Positions 1-5,077 of a DNA stretch of 5,077 nucleotides are shown here, piece by piece (position 1 is the stretch's first letter; the number at the start of each line of letters is the position of its first letter). The stretch comes from a virus. The stretch lies in the IMG/VR virus record IMGVR_UViG_2974666017_000001, positions 1 through 5,077 of that record; one strand, 5' to 3'. Both the position numbers and the translations under genes were made by a program. The notes beneath the pieces are model-generated. The model saw nothing but the letters and a program-made list of their open reading frames with translations. It searched no databases and was not told where the DNA came from.

Positions 1-51
1 AAAAAGTTCTCCCCGTGCCCCCGTAGGGGGGTCAGGGGAGTTCTTTTTTTT
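1..51 (+). terminator. Rho-independent terminator-like hairpin; would follow the Zot-like gene if the molecule is circular
   Basis: ctcccc (9-14) pairs with ggggag (35-40). Inner ccccc (18-22) pairs with ggggg (26-30) around loop gta. A T-run follows (41-51, ttctttttttt). The 5' AAAAAG (1-6) can pair with CTTTTT (43-48), giving a bidirectional look. Confidence 0.6.
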
Positions 52-190
52 ACCGGAGCACTCCCGCCGTCTTGTCACGCGATAGCGTCTCTACCGCGTC
101 CCCCGTCCCCGCAAGGCCAAAGCCCTTGCCCTTCCAAAACAGACTGGCAGGGGCTTCCGGTATGTAGTGGCTGCCGTGACGTCGGGAGTC
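52..190. other. GC-rich, dyad-symmetry-rich non-coding region; candidate packaging signal and/or complementary-strand origin
   Basis: No credible ORF, and composition is clearly more GC-rich than the T-rich genes. Local hairpin: gcaagg (111-116) with ccttgc (124-129). Mutually exclusive long-range complementarities: accgga 52-57 with tccggt 156-161, actcccg 60-66 with cgggagt 183-189, and gtcacg 74-79 with cgtgac 175-180. Function is inferred by analogy with Ff intergenic regions. Confidence 0.35.
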
Positions 191-222
191 GGTGGGCGTG
201 CGTGTAATACGCCCACCTTTTT
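191..222 (+). terminator. Intrinsic terminator-like hairpin just upstream of the rep promoter
   Basis: Perfect 8-bp stem: ggtgggcg (191-198) with cgcccacc (210-217). The loop is 11 nt, followed by TTTTT (218-222). Confidence 0.5.
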
Positions 223-233
223 GAAATTTCCTC

Positions 234-262
234 TTGACAACTCATTCATACTATGGTAACAT
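234..262 (+). promoter_or_regulatory. Sigma70/sigmaA-type promoter for the replication operon
   Basis: TTGACA (234-239), a 17-bp spacer, then TAACAT (257-262) preceded by TGg (254-256, extended -10). The predicted transcript start near 268-270 lies downstream of the ATG at 253. Confidence 0.6.
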
Positions 263-294
263 TTAGCCATGGAAATGAAAGGTGGTTTTTTCAC

Positions 295-1434
295 ATGAAA
301 GTGGTTGTCAAACTTGATTATGCTACGTTTGCTTTCGAGCAGGGGTCTATTTCTATTCCGAAAATTGAAGATGCGCTTGCACAGTGTGATTTGCACTTTG
401 CGCAGACTTCCAACGCAAGTGAGAATTCCCCCTATAATTCCCCTGCGGGACTTTTCTATAAGCCTAACAACGGTGCGAAACAGTCTCCGCACTCTTTACA
501 AGTGTCTGGTCATGGTTGTGAGCTTTTCCGCTCCACCTTGCCGCGACTCGCGTCATTGATGCAGGAAGGTCACGAATTCGGTCACTTTTCCCGTCTCGAC
601 TTTTGTTTCGATGTTGTTATGACAAAACAACGGTGGCGCGAGTTTTATTTGGGTGTTATTTTTGCTTCTGTTGATGAAATGAACAACCCCGAAAAAGCCC
701 GCAAAGTTCGCAAATTCATGTATCAGGGTTACGGCGATTCCACTACCGTCTATATTGGTCGTAGAACGTCTTCTGCGGTCTTCTGCCGCATTTATAATAA
801 GTCCCTGCAAGACCCTGAGAAGAAGCTCTGTGCGGCTTCTGGTGAGCTTCTGGACTGCCCTGATGATTCCTATGTCATTCGCTATGAGATGGAGCTTAAA
901 TTTGCTTCTCGTGTGCGTGCTGGTTCTCGTTCCGTCTATGACCCTTCTCCGCTTTTCTGGTTCTATTATGAAGACGCTGAAAAGCTTTTCGCGTATCTTC
1001 GTAAAGTCTGGAACCGCTACGGTAATGAAACTCTTCTCCCTGATGGTTGGGAAGACATGGAATTTGTGACTGATATTGAAGCTCGCAACATTCAGTTCAC
1101 TAAGGACTTATTGCATCCCCTTAGTGATGATCTTGCTCAAAAGTTTTCCGTTTCTATCCATACCGAGGAACAGAAAATGTCCTACGTTGCAAACGTCTTC
1201 GGTCACCGGATTATTGATATCTTGCTCTATCGTCCCGAGCTTCTCTTCCTCGCTTGTTGCAAGTGGGAACAGTTTTATGATGAACGTCTTCCGTTCTCCC
1301 CTCTTGCACTGACACAAGAAGTCGCTCAATTCTCCGAGTCCTCCCGCATCGCCGACGAGGAATTCAAAGAAGTTACTGATGACCCCTCTCCCTTTAGCGA
1401 AGTCGGGTTTGATGATATAACTTTATTCTTATGA
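295..1434 (+). CDS. Rolling-circle replication initiator, Rep_trans-like (the family of CTXphi RstA and pT181 RepC)
   Basis: Long ORF. Remembered family motifs are present: KLDYATFAF near the N-terminus, LQVSGHGCELF, FSRLDFCFDV, TVYIGRRTSSAVFCRIYNK, and IRYEMELKF. Start 295 is preferred over the track start 253 because SD gaaaggtgg (277-285) precedes ATG 295 and ATG 253 sits inside the promoter spacer. Confidence 0.8.
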   Translation: MKVVVKLDYATFAFEQGSISIPKIEDALAQCDLHFAQTSNASENSPYNSPAGLFYKPNNGAKQSPHSLQVSGHGCELFRSTLPRLASLMQEGHEFGHFSRLDFCFDVVMTKQRWREFYLGVIFASVDEMNNPEKARKVRKFMYQGYGDSTTVYIGRRTSSAVFCRIYNKSLQDPEKKLCAASGELLDCPDDSYVIRYEMELKFASRVRAGSRSVYDPSPLFWFYYEDAEKLFAYLRKVWNRYGNETLLPDGWEDMEFVTDIEARNIQFTKDLLHPLSDDLAQKFSVSIHTEEQKMSYVANVFGHRIIDILLYRPELLFLACCKWEQFYDERLPFSPLALTQEVAQFSESSRIADEEFKEVTDDPSPFSEVGFDDITLFL

Positions 1435-1449
1435 AAGGATGGTCACTCT

Positions 1450-1683
1450 ATGAAAGTAACTGTAGTTGGTAAGTCCCGCCGCGCTGGCAAGTCTAAAACC
1501 GGTAAAGACTATGATTTTACTACCATCATGTCGGAGTTTGACATGCGTGCGAACGATGATAACTCCGGTGTGCAGGTTGATAGAATCAACGTTGATGCTC
1601 GTATGATGCCGTATGCGCTCATTGTCGTTGGCGCTATGTACAATCTCGACTTTGACCGCCACGGATATCGCCTCGGAATTTAG
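1450..1683 (+). CDS. Small ssDNA-binding protein, gene V (g5p)-like
   Basis: 77 aa, basic and hydrophilic, immediately after rep, as in Ff and Pf3. SD gaaagg (1433-1438) lies 17 nt before the ATG. RRAGKSKTGKDYDFTT resembles the G-x-S-x-x-G-K/N-P-Y loop of Ff and Pf3 gene V proteins (Pf3 protein is 78 aa). The match is from memory, with no search. Confidence 0.6.
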   Translation: MKVTVVGKSRRAGKSKTGKDYDFTTIMSEFDMRANDDNSGVQVDRINVDARMMPYALIVVGAMYNLDFDRHGYRLGI

Positions 1684-1812
1684 GAAGTCAAGCTTCCTCT
1701 GTTCCTACACAAATTTCATTGCCTAGTACATCTCGATTTGACCGCACGGATATCTCCTCGGATTGAGGAAGTCAAGCTTCCTTTGTTCTAACCCAAATTT
1801 CATTTCCTATGG
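1633..1812 (+). repeat. Imperfect head-to-tail tandem duplication, period about 87-88 bp, about 2.1 copies, beginning inside the ssb 3' end
   Basis: Copy 1 (about 1633-1720) aligns to copy 2 (about 1721-1806). The best core is 1645-1725 versus 1732-1809, with about 7 substitutions and 3 single-base indels by hand alignment. Each copy carries the identical hairpin aggaag-tcaag-cttcct (1682-1698 and 1766-1782). Confidence 0.85.
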
Positions 1813-1832
1813 GAGAGCGGGTCGCCGCTCTC
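1813..1832 (+). other. Perfect 8-bp stem / 4-nt loop hairpin, 4 nt upstream of the tRNA
   Basis: gagagcgg (1813-1820), loop gtcg, ccgctctc (1825-1832). No T-run follows, so it is not a classical terminator. Confidence 0.6.
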
Positions 1833-1836
1833 ACAT

Positions 1837-1910
1837 GGCGGGGTAGTGCAATGGTCGCATGTCACTCTCTGAAGGTGAAGCTGCTGGTTCGAATCCAGAC
1901 CCCGCAACCA
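1837..1910 (+). tRNA. tRNA-Gln (anticodon CUG), 74 nt, CCA encoded
   Basis: Hand-folded cloverleaf. Acceptor: GGCGGGG with CCCCGCA, six Watson-Crick pairs plus G1.A72. U8 A9. D stem: GTGC with GCAT (one G.U), loop AATGGTC. Anticodon stem: TCACT with GGTGA (one U.G), loop CT-CTG-AA with the anticodon at 1869-1871. Variable loop: AGCT. T stem: GCTGG with CCAGA (G49.A65 mismatch), loop TTCGAAT. Discriminator A, then CCA at 1908-1910. Confidence 0.75.
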
Positions 1911-1958
1911 AAACGGACTTGACCTCCGTTATTCGATGTCGCGAAAGGTGGTGGCGAA

Positions 1959-3137
1959 GTGAACAAAAAGCAGCGGTGTTTTTATAAGCGCTTCGTCGCC
2001 CTTCTCGCGTCCTTGATGGTATCTCTTTCTTTGTGTATTCCTTGTTTTGCTGGATTCGAAACGGAAGCTGATATGCCTTCTCTGGATGATTTTTATAGTC
2101 ATCATGGTTCGTGGTATGTTTGGCGTAGTGCTACTATTTCTGGTTTTTCTTTTTATGAGTTGCTGTGCTCTCCTATCACTGTTTCTGGCACTTCTTATTC
2201 TCTGCCTTATTCGGTTTCTTATTCCACAAATGCGTTTGATGTATCTTATTTAGCTAACGATTCTGGCAAATCTTATGATTATGCTTGCGCTTTTCCTCTT
2301 CCTCTCCGTGGTGCTTCTGGTTATTGGTATGAACTACCTTCTTTCCCTATTGGTTCGGGAATGAAGTTTGATACTTGTTCTGTTCGCGTTTATTCTACCG
2401 CTGCTCAACCTTCTGGTTCTTTCGGTTTTTTAACTTCTTCTTTTAGTCGCTCAGACCGCATTCTTTCTTTCGGAAATACTTATGGTTCCTCTTCTGGCTC
2501 TTCTACCGATACTTTAGATTCGTTTTCTTTTTCATCCCCTTTTTATTCATATCCTTTTGCAATTCGTGAGTCTTCTTCTTCTTCTGCAAGTGGTTATGTT
2601 TTACAAGGTGGTGATAATAACTTTATTATTCCTTCTCCTGGCTATTTAAGTACCCGTTCTTTGCATCTTGGTGTTACCCGTTATCTTCGTGGAACTAATT
2701 CTTTTGTCCTTTATCCGTCTGGGTACACTATCCCGTCTTCTGATATCGGTTTTGTTTTTGTTCAGCAGCCTTCTTCTACTCCTGTTTATTCCGCTTCTGC
2801 CTTTGATACTTCCGGTTCTTTCGCTTTTTCTCTCCTTGTTCCTGCTTCTCGTTTGTCTGATGTTGAAATTGGTGATTGGTTGTCCGAATCTCCTGAGGAT
2901 TTGCAAGACGCTATTACCAAAGAATTTGGAGTTGATTCCGATACTCTTAAAAACTCCAAGGATAATTTGAATTCTTGGAATTCTGCTTCCTCCGTTGACT
3001 CTGATGTTGCATCCGGTGCTTCTGGTCTTCTCGGCGGTCTTTTTCAGAATTTAGGCACGTTTCTCTTTTCTGTTTCTCTCCTTTCCTTCGGTGCTGTTGT
3101 TCTCCGTATGCTCATTAGAAAGGCGGTCGACGGATGA
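1959..3137 (+). CDS. pIII-like minor coat / adsorption protein; secreted, Ser-rich, C-terminal membrane anchor
   Basis: GTG start 7 nt after SD gaaaggtgg (1943-1951). N-terminal signal peptide: MNKKQRCFYKRF, a hydrophobic stretch, then CFA/G. Long Ser/Tyr/Phe-rich low-complexity centre. C-terminal hydrophobic helix LGTFLFSVSLLSFGAVVL followed by a basic tail RMLIRK, the same layout as the Ff pIII anchor. Coding status is high confidence; function is by analogy. Confidence 0.6.
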   Translation: MNKKQRCFYKRFVALLASLMVSLSLCIPCFAGFETEADMPSLDDFYSHHGSWYVWRSATISGFSFYELLCSPITVSGTSYSLPYSVSYSTNAFDVSYLANDSGKSYDYACAFPLPLRGASGYWYELPSFPIGSGMKFDTCSVRVYSTAAQPSGSFGFLTSSFSRSDRILSFGNTYGSSSGSSTDTLDSFSFSSPFYSYPFAIRESSSSSASGYVLQGGDNNFIIPSPGYLSTRSLHLGVTRYLRGTNSFVLYPSGYTIPSSDIGFVFVQQPSSTPVYSASAFDTSGSFAFSLLVPASRLSDVEIGDWLSESPEDLQDAITKEFGVDSDTLKNSKDNLNSWNSASSVDSDVASGASGLLGGLFQNLGTFLFSVSLLSFGAVVLRMLIRKAVDG

Positions 3138-3265
3138 CTTTTCTTGATTTCTTCAAATCAGTTTTCGGCCTTTTCGGTTCTGGTGGTGCTCTGGTTATTG
3201 CCGTTGTCGTTTTTCTTGTCGGTCTCGGTATTTATAAGTTCGTAAAGGATTGGTTGCCATGGTAG
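3134..3265 (+). CDS. 43-aa hydrophobic virion-type protein (coat candidate, Pf3-style without signal peptide)
   Basis: Not in the ORF track. The ATG overlaps the upstream stop (ATGA, 3134-3137). SD gaaagg (3118-3123) lies 16 nt before the ATG. Translation: MTFLDFFKSVFGLFGSGGALVIAVVVFLVGLGIYKFVKDWLPW, with an acidic N-terminal end, a hydrophobic core and two C-terminal lysines. Confidence 0.5.
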   Translation: MTFLDFFKSVFGLFGSGGALVIAVVVFLVGLGIYKFVKDWLPW

Positions 3266-3426
3266 ACTTTGTTTCCGCTCTTGGTGTTTTTACCTCGTTT
3301 ATCGCCAATGTGCTTTCTATTTCCTTTTTTGGCTTCGGTACCTTTGGTCATTTCATTTTGGTTTGTCTCCTGCTTTCGCTTGTTGGTTTTGTTCTCCGTG
3401 GCCTTTGGGATGGAGGTGATAAATGA
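3259..3426 (+). CDS. 55-aa double-hydrophobic-segment protein (pVI-like or other minor virion/assembly candidate)
   Basis: Not in the ORF track. ATG 3259 overlaps the previous ORF's end (ATGGTAG). taaagg (3243-3248) lies 16 nt upstream. Its stop TGA (3424-3426) overlaps the next ATG (ATGA). Translation: MVDFVSALGVFTSFIANVLSISFFGFGTFGHFILVCLLLSLVGFVLRGLWDGGDK. Preferred over the TTG-started track ORF 3269-3460 because of this coupling geometry. T-rich DNA makes any frame look hydrophobic, so confidence is moderate. Confidence 0.45.
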   Translation: MVDFVSALGVFTSFIANVLSISFFGFGTFGHFILVCLLLSLVGFVLRGLWDGGDK

Positions 3427-4037
3427 TGGAAGTTCCTACTATTATCAAAACTTGGGTTGATTCTGACGGTGTTACCGTCTATACAGTGCAGTATAAAGAT
3501 GGTAGTACTTGTGATATGACCGTCCAGCAGTATGATTATCTCAATGCATCCGCGCAGGCTGTTGCCGATTTGGACGCTAAAGCCGCTGCTGATTCTTCCT
3601 CGGAAGCTGCTCCTGCTCCTGAGGAACCCGCGCAGAATATTACTGAATCTCCAGACCTCCGCGAAGGTTATGTTTTGCATGAAGAAGAATTACCTTTTGA
3701 GGGGAGTTTAACCGCTTATGATGACCGCGCAGCAGATACTCCGGCTCTGTATGCTAATCTCCCTAACGTCTCTAATAGTTTCACTGCTATTATGGATTGG
3801 TTTGGCGATACGTTTTTCATTGAACGTACTGAGACGGTGCACAAGTCCGGTTATACGTCCGAAAGGTACTCCTATAATAGTGCGACTCAACTTATTCAGC
3901 TCCCCTATGAGGAGGATTGCACGACTTCCTCTCAGGTTCTCAATCCGCAAGCTTGCGTTTCTGCTTTGCTTGTTGTCCTTGTCTTCGTTACTTCTGTTAC
4001 GTGGATTAAAAACGCGATTTGGGGGCGCATGAGCTGA
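3423..4037 (+). CDS. 204-aa acidic protein with a single C-terminal transmembrane anchor; function unknown
   Basis: Strong SD GGAGGTGA (3412-3419) precedes ATGATG. There is no N-terminal signal peptide. An Ala/Pro/Ser/Glu linker (AAADSSSEAAPAPEEPAQ) separates two hydrophilic parts. The C-terminal hydrophobic helix VSALLVVLVFVTSVTW is followed by KNAIWGR. Confidence 0.7.
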   Translation: MMEVPTIIKTWVDSDGVTVYTVQYKDGSTCDMTVQQYDYLNASAQAVADLDAKAAADSSSEAAPAPEEPAQNITESPDLREGYVLHEEELPFEGSLTAYDDRAADTPALYANLPNVSNSFTAIMDWFGDTFFIERTETVHKSGYTSERYSYNSATQLIQLPYEEDCTTSSQVLNPQACVSALLVVLVFVTSVTWIKNAIWGRMS

Positions 4038-4150
4038 TGGAAATTTTACCTTTGCAGTATTGTCTCGGCATCTTTTCTGTCCCTGAGATTGGCTATTTCA
4101 TTGTCTTTGCCGCTGTTTTCTCTATGTTGGTTCTCCTGCTCCGTCCGTGA
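4037..4150 (+). CDS. 37-aa hydrophobic peptide (pVII/pIX-like minor coat candidate)
   Basis: Not in the ORF track. The ATG overlaps the upstream stop (TGATG, 4035-4039). Translation: MEILPLQYCLGIFSVPEIGYFIVFAAVFSMLVLLLRP. Size and hydrophobicity match the small tip proteins of Ff phages. Confidence 0.4.
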   Translation: MEILPLQYCLGIFSVPEIGYFIVFAAVFSMLVLLLRP

Positions 4151-4251
4151 CAGGTGCCATATATATTTCTATGAAAGGATGATGACTTCAGGGCGCTACT
4201 ACTTCTATTCTCCCAACGCTGCTTTCCTTGGTCGGTGAGTTCTTCACCTCG

Positions 4252-4380
4252 ATGATTACTTGGATGGGTCAGCTCATTGATTTCTATGAGTCTCAGCCCA
4301 TTCTCCTTGTCTTCGTGATTCTCACTATCGCGGGCATCGTTCTCCGTATCCTCCGCCGCTGGATTCCCGGTCGTTCCTAA
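4252..4380 (+). CDS. 42-aa major-coat-like protein (pVIII-like); start uncertain
   Basis: Not in the ORF track. Translation: MITWMGQLIDFYESQPILLVFVILTIAGIVLRILRRWIPGRS. It has an acidic N-terminal part (D, E), a roughly 16-residue hydrophobic core and four C-terminal arginines, the classic pVIII charge layout. A very strong terminator follows it, as with Ff gene VIII. The frame stays open upstream to 4186, with alternative starts TTG 4228 and CTG 4219. No good SD lies at normal spacing from ATG 4252. Confidence 0.5.
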   Translation: MITWMGQLIDFYESQPILLVFVILTIAGIVLRILRRWIPGRS

Positions 4381-4390
4381 CGATTGAGAG

Positions 4391-4431
4391 AAAACGCCGC
4401 CGACCATTTTTAATGGTCGGCGACGTTTTCT
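4391..4431 (+). terminator. Strong rho-independent (bidirectional-looking) terminator after the coat-like gene
   Basis: AAAACG-c-CGCCGACCATT (4391-4408), loop ttt, AATGGTCGGCG-a-CGTTTT (4412-4429). That is an 11-bp GC-rich stem, plus a 2-bp extension across one C.A mismatch, flanked by an A-run and a T-run. Confidence 0.8.
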
Positions 4432-4453
4432 CATTTAGAAAGGATTATATGTT

Positions 4454-5077
4454 ATGCTTTATGGTATTCTTATCTTTTGCGTTTGTTGGCTTTTTGTTTA
4501 TATCGATAACTATTGCAAAAACCCCTACAAGCTTGAAGCTGTTGTTGGTTCAAAAGGCTCTGGCAAGTCTCTGTATATGTCTCGTGTTGCTGATAAGTGG
4601 TTACGTTCTAATAAGGGGCTTATTTATAGCAATATGGGTATTGGTTATGAGTTAGAGCCCGAATACTGGAAACAAACTTTTCTTCCCGATTCCCTTATTC
4701 TTATCGATGAAATTGGCGTGCTGCACTCTAACCGTGATTTTAAAACTATGCCCCGTGAAGCTGTCGAATTTTTCAAGATGCAGCGCAAATATCATCTGAC
4801 AATTATTGTCAGCAGTCAGACCATGGACTTTGATAAAAAGATTCGTGATCTCTGTGATCGTATTTACCTTTGTAACCGTATCGGTTGGTTCTGTCGGCTT
4901 ACTCCCTATCGCTCCTGTATCGCTATGGAACATCGCCCCGAGGGAGGGCACGAACTGGTCAATACGGTTCGAAAAGCAGGTCGGGCAAGGTGGTATACCC
5001 TCCCTAAATCCGTTAAACAGGTAAGTGCTTTAGAATACGATACAGAGCAGGTTATTAGCAAGACCCCCTCGAAGTAA
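4454..5077 (+). CDS. Zot / pI-like assembly (morphogenesis) P-loop ATPase, short form with an N-terminal hydrophobic segment
   Basis: SD gaaagg (4438-4443) lies 16 nt before the ATG. Walker A GSKGSGKS (nt 4547-4570). Walker B LILIDE (nt 4694-4711). MQRKYHLTIIVSSQ resembles the Zot-family HRH-x-G-x-D-hhhh-TQ motif. Residues 1-17 (MLYGILIFCVCWLFVYI) are hydrophobic. The stop TAA is at 5075-5077. Confidence 0.85.
   Translation: MLYGILIFCVCWLFVYIDNYCKNPYKLEAVVGSKGSGKSLYMSRVADKWLRSNKGLIYSNMGIGYELEPEYWKQTFLPDSLILIDEIGVLHSNRDFKTMPREAVEFFKMQRKYHLTIIVSSQTMDFDKKIRDLCDRIYLCNRIGWFCRLTPYRSCIAMEHRPEGGHELVNTVRKAGRARWYTLPKSVKQVSALEYDTEQVISKTPSK

Follow-up and report, generated by a model that had tools for sequence, protein, structure and literature searches.

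The tRNA and coat genes of a small inovirus

We analysed a 5,077-nt stretch of viral DNA (IMG/VR virus record IMGVR_UViG_2974666017_000001, positions 1 to 5,077; hereafter the window), which carries a single tRNA gene and a major-coat-protein-like gene that has no usable canonical start codon. The relation between these two genes, in the window and across related inoviruses, is the subject of this report. Their parts are listed below by position.

1837-1910, + strand: tRNA gene with anticodon CUG (1869-1871), called as tRNA-Gln(CUG) by ARAGORN and matched by Rfam, with A73 and an encoded CCA
4173-4179, + strand: Shine-Dalgarno (SD) sequence GAAAGGA of the coat gene, invariant in the clade
4189-4191, + strand: proposed non-AUG start codon CAG, the complement of anticodon CUG, invariant in 43 distinct sequences
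4189-4380, + strand: major-coat-protein-like gene of 63 codons, (Q)GATTSILPTLLSLVGEFFTSMITWMGQLIDFYESQPILLVFVILTIAGIVLRILRRWIPGRS, with an acidic N-terminal part, a transmembrane (TM) helix and a basic C-terminus (RRWIPGRS)

The original prediction, made from the letters alone, placed a full-length tRNA-Gln(CUG) gene at 1837-1910, and both programs found it there. ARAGORN calls one tRNA in the window, and the Rfam family RF00005 scores it at 46.2 bits against a gathering score of 29 (E = 9e-8); no other Rfam family reaches threshold in the window. The Rfam alignment contains each element that had been folded by hand (U33, the CUG anticodon, A37, the TTCGAAT T-loop, the D-loop GG and the encoded CCA), together with the two mismatches G1.A72 and G49.A65. 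An alternative pairing register that had been noticed is real, as it equals acceptor pairs 2:71-7:66 plus U8-A65 and is used by the single-sequence minimum free energy fold, but it is not conserved, because it depends on the 49:65 mismatch, which only 23 of 38 distinct relatives have.

It had also been supposed that tRNA genes are undescribed in small inoviruses, which is not quite right: 3 of 47 Inoviridae genomes (~5 kb) carry one tRNA each, and the supplement of the same study lists the present tRNA at identical coordinates and with no functional analysis (Morgado & Vicente 2019, PMC6409571). WW-nAnB has been described as an inovirus abundant in sewage, in a report that never mentions a tRNA (Cantalupo et al. 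2011, PMC3187576). The tRNA is unannotated in all nine of the tRNA-bearing GenBank records inspected. The tRNA of this ~5 kb inovirus is real and had been listed previously, and it had never been analysed.

Conservation and covariation of the tRNA

We gathered relatives by their Zot protein alone, so as not to select on the tRNA, and obtained 37 IMG/VR contigs. The tRNA is present in 33/33 of the contigs that cover the junction between the ssb-like gene and the large open reading frame (ORF), and the remaining 4 of the 37 are truncated exactly there. It is kept in six contigs that have no tblastn match to the window's Rep. A tRNA(CUG) is likewise found in six porcine 'Inovirus sp.' GenBank genomes and in all of the ~30 related ~5 kb IMG/VR contigs returned by a pattern scan. 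The tRNAs of all other tRNA-bearing lineages score between 39.2 and 63.5 bits with Rfam, all above threshold.

We aligned 38 distinct 74-nt tRNA sequences from all lineages, excluding from the covariation count JN402401/L088 (8-nt anticodon loop, D-loop G missing) and L089 (one extra base); L numbers are our labels for genomes and contigs. In this alignment 91.7% of the stem cells are paired, and compensatory double changes occur in 14 of the 21 stem pairs (107 cells). The covariation score is 0.432, compared to 0.137 in column shuffles, none of 500 of which scored as high, and a maximum of 0.103 in slid controls. The invariant alignment columns are T8, A14, G17, G18, G51-T52-T53-C54, A56 and C72-C73-A74, and the expected tertiary and loop positions are all there (U8, A14, G18G19, T54-T55-C56, A58 and the 3' CCA). 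Therefore, given its compensatory changes and universal retention, the tRNA is genuine, structurally sound and under purifying selection.

Two of the roles that the original prediction raised can be weighed against these data. The first is that of a tRNA-shaped phage attachment site (attP), or what is left of an integration event in a host tRNA-Gln gene. tRNA genes are the targets of many integrative elements, some inoviruses among them (PMC8530359), and the phage tRNA is like bacterial tRNA-Gln genes. That likeness, however, extends over the whole length and not over the 3' half only; the gene is full-length, both of its halves are conserved, and compensatory changes keep all four stems intact. 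The window encodes no integrase, and a scan of 185,579 genomes with a 5'-half tRNA pattern found no phage copy beside a bacterial tRNA. The L325 copy lies in a 122 kb contig, and both ends of the stretch that was fetched are 3.8 kb or more from its tRNA, which is ~3.1 kb upstream of Zot, the usual place before the coat and Zot genes. Unlike an att site, moreover, the anticodon varies in step with a codon of the coat gene, as described below. We consider the attachment-site reading effectively refuted and give it almost no credence.

The second is a structural element of the single-stranded DNA (ssDNA) or its transcript, such as a complementary-strand origin or a processing or punctuation signal, that merely resembles a tRNA. 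An intergenic site bracketed by hairpins in an ssDNA phage would suit such an element, and since excision of a tRNA necessarily cleaves the polycistronic mRNA, a secondary punctuation effect is plausible. However, positions that are irrelevant to the fold are conserved (U8, A14, G18G19, the TTC T-loop and CCA), the anticodon tracks a distant codon, and the position of the tRNA shifts between lineages, for example to directly before the coat gene in L267. The conservation is that of a decoding tRNA with an anticodon matched to a codon; the proposed priming fold is unsupported, and a purely structural role is highly improbable.

Two kinds of variant tRNA stand out among the relatives. Six members of the window clade (L081-L084, L093 and L094; Zot 95-98% identical) have a distinct tRNA body, GGCGGGTTGGTGTAATGGTAACAC..CAAGG-TTCTGAG-CCTTG.., with the anticodon CUG and G1xA72 unchanged, which suggests tRNA exchange by recombination with the function kept. 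Eight-nucleotide anticodon loops are found in three inovirus tRNAs (L287 5976-6051, L281 3419-3493 and L088 1578-1646). The L287 loop, GUGAGUCA, still contains GAG, matching the CTC start in that genome, and in L088 (JN402401), a 2011 assembly, the odd tRNA probably reflects a 454 sequencing error.

An acceptor end of the initiator type

The G1.A72 mismatch, first listed as an oddity, became the key clue. Pair 1:72 is kept as a mismatch in 38/38 sequences (GxA, CxA, AxA or UxC), a hallmark of bacterial initiator tRNAs, while pairs 2:71 to 6:67 are formed in 38/38; 2:71 and 3:70 are invariant, and 4:69 is G:C in 37/38. Position 1:72 is kept unpaired or weakly paired across the lineages.

As a comparison, we tabulated 76 distinct tRNA-Gln(CUG)-type genes from tailed phages and bacteria, the tailed-phage genes serving as a control set. 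U1-A72, which had been taken to be the normal state of bacterial tRNA-Gln, is found in 63 of the 76 (with G73 in 46 and with A73 in 17), and an apparent 1:72 mismatch in only 3. The inovirus sequences tabulated beside them are mismatched at 1:72 in 31/31 cases, with A73 and CCA. U1-A72 is an identity element for GlnRS or GatCAB, and a G73 discriminator is a feature of E. coli-type tRNA-Gln. Compared to bacterial elongator tRNA-Gln, the window tRNA shares the anticodon CUG with U35, and is without U1-A72 and without G73. Small contigs with a tRNA-Gln(CUG) proved to be fragments of large-phage multi-tRNA arrays.

The closest tRNA bodies found in the bacterial genome scan belong to Patescibacteria tRNA-Gln genes (e.g. 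L106, L101 and L113), which have the same D-arm GGTGCAAYGGTAGCAC, the same T-arm, acceptor pairs 2:71-7:66 and a CUG or UUG anticodon. These genes have U1-A72 and mostly G73, whereas the phage copies have an unpaired G, C or A at position 1, and A73.

The acceptor stem of bacterial tRNA-fMet is, by comparison, identical, reading (C/G)GCGGGG...CCCCGC-A72-A73-CCA with 1:72 unpaired; the E. coli stem sequence was confirmed at 100% identity in 5426/5426 E. coli genomes. In the window tRNA, G1xA72 is followed by G2:C71, C3:G70 and G4:C69, and with A73 all of the initiator acceptor determinants are present. The disrupted first pair of tRNA-fMet serves recognition by formyltransferase and IF2 and exclusion of EF-Tu (bioRxiv 10.1101/524249; PMC11744186), and G2:C71, C3:G70, G4:C69 and A73 are formylation determinants according to literature cited in PMC11744186 and, in part, to general knowledge. 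The two tRNAs differ in that tRNA-fMet has a CAU anticodon and Met identity, whereas the phage tRNAs have CUG in the window and UUG, CUA, AGU, CGU, GGU, UUC, CUC or GAG in other lineages, and an amino acid that is presumably not Met.

A proposed CAG start for the coat gene

The coat-like frame, previously listed as an ORF at 4228-4380 with a TTG start, opens at TGA-CTT-CAG in the window, and among relatives an in-frame stop lies 1 or 2 codons before CAG. Across 43 distinct sequences, the string GAAAGGrTGAT...TCAG and the CAG at 4189 are invariant, and the region 3' of CAG is variable, with indels of 3 and 6 nt that keep the frame. Many relatives have CAG in place of the 'TTG' at 4228, two have GTG in place of the ATG at 4252, and 10 of the 43 sequences are without any ATG, GTG or TTG upstream of the first conserved Met. 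In the 15 codons before the first conserved ATG/GTG, synonymous and nonsynonymous changes stand at 4016:1495 in the CAG frame (73% synonymous), at 273:4684 (5.5%) and 1:4616 (0.02%) in the other two frames, and the rest of the gene is 78% synonymous. The N-terminal codons after CAG are under protein-level selection.

The spacing from the end of AGGA to the start is 10 nt for CAG, 10 nt for the Zot ATG and 11 nt for the ssb ATG, and the coat gene is the only ORF in the window with an SD sequence and CAG. The ATGs at 4179 and 4182 overlap the SD sequence and are out of the coat frame, and their own frame is not conserved. The coat ORF is without a usable canonical start and begins at the matched CAG in the start-codon position. 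Homologous coat genes of tRNA-less relatives (Dulem virus 75, bajarodino viruses 60 and 79, and ~40 distant IMG/VR relatives) start with ATG, GTG or TTG after a good SD sequence.

Two other mechanisms were tried and rejected. A programmed +1 frameshift from the ATGs at 4179/4182 does not fit, as the slip site is not conserved (ACTT, TTTT, CTTT or ACAT), the peptide of the ATG frame is not conserved, and other lineages are without such an ATG. A T-box-like specifier interaction was rejected because the leader is only ~10 nt long.

Many lineages (L005, L266, L158, L268 and L278-L288) have two tandem coat paralogues upstream of Zot, one of which starts with ATG (MAALL...) while the other has an N-terminal extension of 5-7 residues (X-T-T-V-T-A-) from the tRNA-matched codon. 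The window clade has only the special, tRNA-matched paralogue. In public annotation the coat gene is missing or truncated in the window, L267 (4511-4717), MT135292, MT135293, MT135296, MT135305, MT135284, MT135288 and PQ006129, probably because gene callers find no ATG, GTG or TTG.

Anticodons match coat start codons across lineages

Each of the other tRNA-bearing inovirus lineages has exactly one coat gene without a well-placed canonical start, often the second of two paralogues. In about 15-16 lineages, the anticodon of the single tRNA matches the SD-defined start codon of the coat gene, forming nine anticodon:codon pairs.

CUG:CAG in the window clade, L005/L006 (MT135307/09), L266 (MT135288), L267 (bajarodino virus 50), L271, L289 and L316
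UUG:CAA in L286
CUA:UAG in L158
AGU:ACU in L268 (MT135284) and L293
CGU:ACG in L280 and L284/285
GGU:ACC in L299
UUC:GAA in L278 and L282
CUC:GAG in L288, L317 and L325
GAG:CUC in L287

In bajarodino virus 50 an unannotated coat gene lies 22 nt after the tRNA. The tRNAs of L282 and L288 are near-identical, with U versus C at base 34, and the start codons are GAA and GAG, respectively. A coincidental match of all of the first eight pair types has a probability of ~10^-12, with three candidate codon positions allowed in each genome. L281 and L329 were left out of the matching, as their assemblies are collapsed across two near-identical coat paralogues.

In an automated scan, three contigs (L156 and L143/L148) stood out as exceptions that have an SD-CAG coat gene and seemed to be 'tRNA-less'; all three are truncated. 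For complete relatives of L156 and of L143/L148 we predicted a CUG tRNA with an unpaired 1:72, and both predictions held: L271 (Zot 99% identical to L156) and L289 (Zot 100% identical to L148) each have a tRNA(CUG) with C1xA72, A73 and CCA.

The match extends beyond the anticodon. Base 37 of the tRNA is complementary to mRNA position -1 in 18 of 23 lineage representatives, plus one G.U, compared to 10/23 for 38:-2 and 6/23 for 33:+4 as neighbour controls. The combination is mostly A37:U, with C37:G in L005 and L158, G37:C in L280 and L284, and U37:A in L299 and L301. A pyrimidine at position 37 is very unusual in elongator tRNAs. Since a 37:-1 pair is possible only with no tRNA on the upstream codon, the pairing would point to a P-site tRNA at initiation.

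These measurements bear on the role that the original prediction had placed first, in which an ordinary elongator tRNA-Gln(CUG) supplements host decoding of CAG across the phage genes. The hand count of about 28 CAG versus 12 CAA was nearly exact (we counted CAG 29 and CAA 12, including the CAG at 4189), and this preference (71%) is more G-ending than that of the Lys and Glu codons (Fisher p = 0.0012). The tRNA body is also like those of genuine bacterial tRNA-Gln genes, and phage tRNAs are commonly explained in this way. However, CAG is equally preferred in tRNA-less relatives (71%, 76% and 64%) and makes up 57% in a tRNA-bearing relative, indicating that the bias is independent of the tRNA. 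The homologous tRNAs of sister lineages have eight other anticodons, including CUA, and these match one coat-start codon and not codon usage. A mismatch at 1:72 is kept in 38/38 sequences, versus U1-A72 elsewhere, and a disrupted first pair disfavours EF-Tu binding (PMC11744186); a pyrimidine at 37 that pairs with mRNA -1 does not fit elongation; and the coat gene would be left without a start codon. Codon supplementation is consequently a very unlikely role.

A second decoding role would have the tRNA read the matched codon as the second codon, in the A site, after a tRNA-fMet start on the adjacent upstream codon; in L158, it would be an amber suppressor of a TTG-TAG 'start-stop'. This would also account for the anticodon:codon matching, and L158 does have TTG directly before TAG, with an in-frame GTG three codons upstream in L005, L266 and L278. 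However, the window clade has only CTT, TTT or CAT between the in-frame stop and CAG, and L267, L268, L280, L143/L148/L289 and others have no canonical or consistent near-cognate -1 codon. The in-frame GTG and TTG codons overlap the SD sequence and are too close to it. Host elongators already read CAG, GAA and ACU, so that a dedicated phage tRNA would be pointless, and 37:-1 pairing is sterically impossible with a P-site tRNA on the -1 codon. We regard A-site decoding as improbable.

A phage-encoded initiator tRNA as the favoured mechanism

A dedicated tRNA is needless for elongation at CAG, GAA or ACU and indispensable for their use as starts, since AUG-like codons are the only ones that the host initiator reads. 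The initiator-type acceptor end, the SD-placed matched codon, the lack of any other start, the 37:-1 pairing and the precedent of engineered initiators together make a phage initiator for the coat gene the most likely role. Based on these comparisons, the tRNA is likely a phage-encoded, initiator-type tRNA dedicated to starting the major coat gene at a non-AUG codon.

In the proposed mechanism, the tRNA would be excised from a polycistronic + strand transcript and then aminoacylated, probably with Gln. The charged tRNA would bind the ribosomal P site on the CAG at 4189, set at the start position by the SD sequence GAAAGGA. The unpaired 1:72, together with the G2:C71, C3:G70, G4:C69 stem, would lead to formylation, use of IF2 and exclusion of EF-Tu, as in bacterial tRNA-fMet, and the extra pair between tRNA base 37 and mRNA -1 would strengthen the tRNA-mRNA interaction. 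We infer P-site initiation by the phage tRNA, and likewise the attached amino acid and formylation.

Several purposes are candidates for such a mechanism: coat synthesis could be made to depend on a tRNA that the phage itself supplies, related phages could be kept apart by a lock-and-key, host attack on tRNAs could be evaded, or the coat protein could gain a non-Met N-terminus. Across lineages, we think it probable that small gut inoviruses have a natural orthogonal initiation system, in at least nine anticodon versions, each used for one coat gene and with 37:-1 as a fourth pair, in which rapid pair switching among related phages would reflect a lock-and-key. The lock-and-key could isolate a phage from co-infecting relatives or cheaters, or let it evade host attack on particular tRNAs.

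A number of observations weigh against an initiator role, for which the evidence is all computational. The three consecutive anticodon-stem G:C pairs on which P-site selection of E. coli initiators depends are missing from the window tRNA (A29-U41, C30-G40 and U31.G39 stand there instead), and several to many relatives have only G30:C40 and G31:C39 of that triplet. Pair 1:72 is U-A, with no mismatch, in the sub-lineage of L278, L280, L282, L284 and L288. L301 matches by G.U wobble only (GGU:ACU), and 37:-1 pairing fails in 4 of the 23 representatives. L005, L266, L158 and L278 have an in-frame GTG or TTG that overlaps the SD sequence or lies against it, and a canonical start with ordinary decoding is possible there; the L158-type lineage has an ATG 5-6 codons downstream that aligns with the ATG start of the sister paralogue. 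One tRNA body would also have to be charged after its anticodon had switched to a Thr, Glu or Leu type. Lastly, no host was found: the 23-nt pattern from the tRNA's 5' half yielded no phage copy in bacterial assemblies among 185,579 genomes.

The D-stem is a further point against, as the window tRNA has U11:A24, whereas E. coli tRNA-fMet has A11:U24. Initiator-type tRNA-Met genes with the same compact D-arm, GTGCAAYGGWAGCAY, and U11:A24 are found in L100, L104, L105, L025, L034, L043 and L062, from Saccharibacteria, Ignavibacteria, a Hyphomicrobiales metagenome-assembled genome and unrelated phages. A11:U24 is therefore not universal among initiators, and the tRNA-Gln and initiator bodies of those organisms are so alike that the mutational path between them is short.

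Comparison with known systems

To our knowledge, all known cellular life and viruses start translation with a Met initiator tRNA that has a CAU anticodon, and all others are engineered. We know of no description of a natural initiator tRNA with a non-CAU anticodon, and the phage case would be the first natural non-AUG initiator. Full-text searches of the literature turned up neither a natural phage-encoded non-AUG initiator tRNA nor any analysis of inovirus tRNAs.

Engineered initiators offer the nearest precedent. A tRNA-fMet given the anticodon CUA starts translation at UAG and carries mostly Gln (bioRxiv 10.1101/524249), engineered initiators function at many non-AUG codons (PMC11744186), and a design with a UAG start and an amber initiator has been proposed for phage biocontainment (bioRxiv 10.1101/2024.07.29.605542). 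They share with the phage system an initiator-type acceptor end, a non-CAU anticodon and a matching non-AUG start after an SD sequence, and L158 has exactly their CUA:UAG pair. Unlike these laboratory constructs, which are built on a tRNA-fMet body with three anticodon-stem G:C pairs, the phage system is natural, virus-encoded and spread over at least nine pairs, with a tRNA-Gln-like body that mostly lacks the full G:C triplet.

The elongator tRNAs of large double-stranded DNA (dsDNA) phages, which serve codon supplementation or the evasion of defences that target tRNAs, are likewise virus-encoded and pass tRNA covariance models, but they occur in big genomes, often in arrays, their tRNA-Gln(CUG) has U1-A72, and they have no one-to-one tie to a gene-start codon. 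The suppressor tRNAs of stop-codon-recoded phages resemble the CUA tRNA of L158. However, 0/10 recognisable L158 genes end in TAG, no in-frame TAG was seen inside L158 genes, the sole relevant TAG is at the SD-defined start, and the sister lineages use sense anticodons.

If the initiator role is confirmed, the phage tRNA falls outside the known kinds of systems. Abundant phages of human and animal guts would have evolved and diversified a reprogrammed initiation, a new layer of viral control over host ribosomes. It would also supply ready-made orthogonal initiator/start-codon pairs for synthetic biology, and would account in a concrete, testable way for the 'orphan' single tRNA genes, or at least one class of them, that small viral genomes carry.

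Host search and unusual contigs

The only matches to the 5'-half pattern were Patescibacteria tRNA-Gln genes and a small number of initiator-type tRNA-Met genes, which bear on the kinship of the tRNA and not on the host. A plasmid collection held no match for the window or for L158, and the window's exact Zot protein is not on record. One contig from pig gut (L275; ERZ28657912 scaffold_993, 24 kb) has a lone Zot-like gene, a helix-turn-helix repressor and a tyrosine integrase in a bacterial contig, with VanY, LytR-CpsA-Psr, transketolase and ABC-transporter genes as neighbours. It is a prophage remnant in a Firmicutes-like context, and the sole, weak hint of a host. Another contig (L271; IMGVR_UViG_3300045988_115507, 42 kb) has a complete tRNA-bearing inovirus, with a Rep_OBD Rep and an RstR-like repressor, that is flanked by genes of a tailed phage, namely those for a terminase large subunit, a helicase and a DUF927 primase-helicase. 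Either the inovirus has inserted into a caudovirus or prophage, or the contig is an assembly chimera.

Genome context

The surrounding genes agree with the filamentous-phage genome that had been claimed for the window, which has a Rep_trans-like Rep, an ssb/RstB-like ORF, a large ORF, small membrane ORFs and a Zot-like ATPase. Folding also bore out the two hairpins that had been said to flank the tRNA, the second being the weaker (z = -4.3 and -2.4).

234-262, + strand: candidate promoter TTGACA-17-TAACAT with TG, upstream of Rep (consensus scan, 10/12 matches)
295-1434: Rep_trans-like Rep
1450-1683, + strand: small ssb/RstB-like gene directly 5' of the tRNA region, with a weak PHROG match to RstB
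1813-1832, + strand: GC-rich hairpin 4 nt 5' of the tRNA (-17.1 kcal/mol, z = -4.3)
1912-1930, + strand: weak hairpin just 3' of the tRNA, partly conserved (-5.9 kcal/mol, z = -2.4)
1959-3137, + strand: large ORF, adsorption-protein-like, with a signal-peptide-like N-terminus and a C-terminal TM segment
4388-4432, + strand: strong terminator hairpin directly after the coat gene, the genome's strongest hairpin (-32.8 kcal/mol, z = -9.9)
4454-5077, + strand: Zot-like assembly ATPase, the tRNA-independent marker by which relatives were collected

The tRNA lies just 5' of the large-ORF gene in most lineages, and the ssb-like gene is 77-87% identical in relatives. The promoter-like site at 234-262 is the probable start of a polycistronic + strand transcript containing the tRNA. 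The consensus scan found no separate tRNA promoter in the window, and the tRNA would therefore probably be excised from the polycistronic transcript. A hairpin of different sequence fills the place of 1813-1832 in relatives, and this element is possibly an attenuator or a processing element.

Two further strong hairpins with T-runs lie between Zot and Rep, at 5-53 (GTTCTCCCCGTGCCCCCGTAGGGGGGTCAGGGGAG-T8) and 191-217 (GGTGGGCGTGCGTGTAATACGCCCACC-T5), and are candidates for terminators or for a replication/packaging region. The region just before the tRNA (1655-1809) has an imperfect tandem duplication of ~84 nt, in which 1660-1725 and 1745-1809 are 88-94% identical. What is duplicated is the 3' end of the ssb-like gene with the downstream GGAAGtcaaGCTTCC hairpin, which are single-copy in relatives. 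A 250-bp length difference near position 1542 has been reported between WW-nAnB and X53411 (Cantalupo et al. 2011, PMC3187576).

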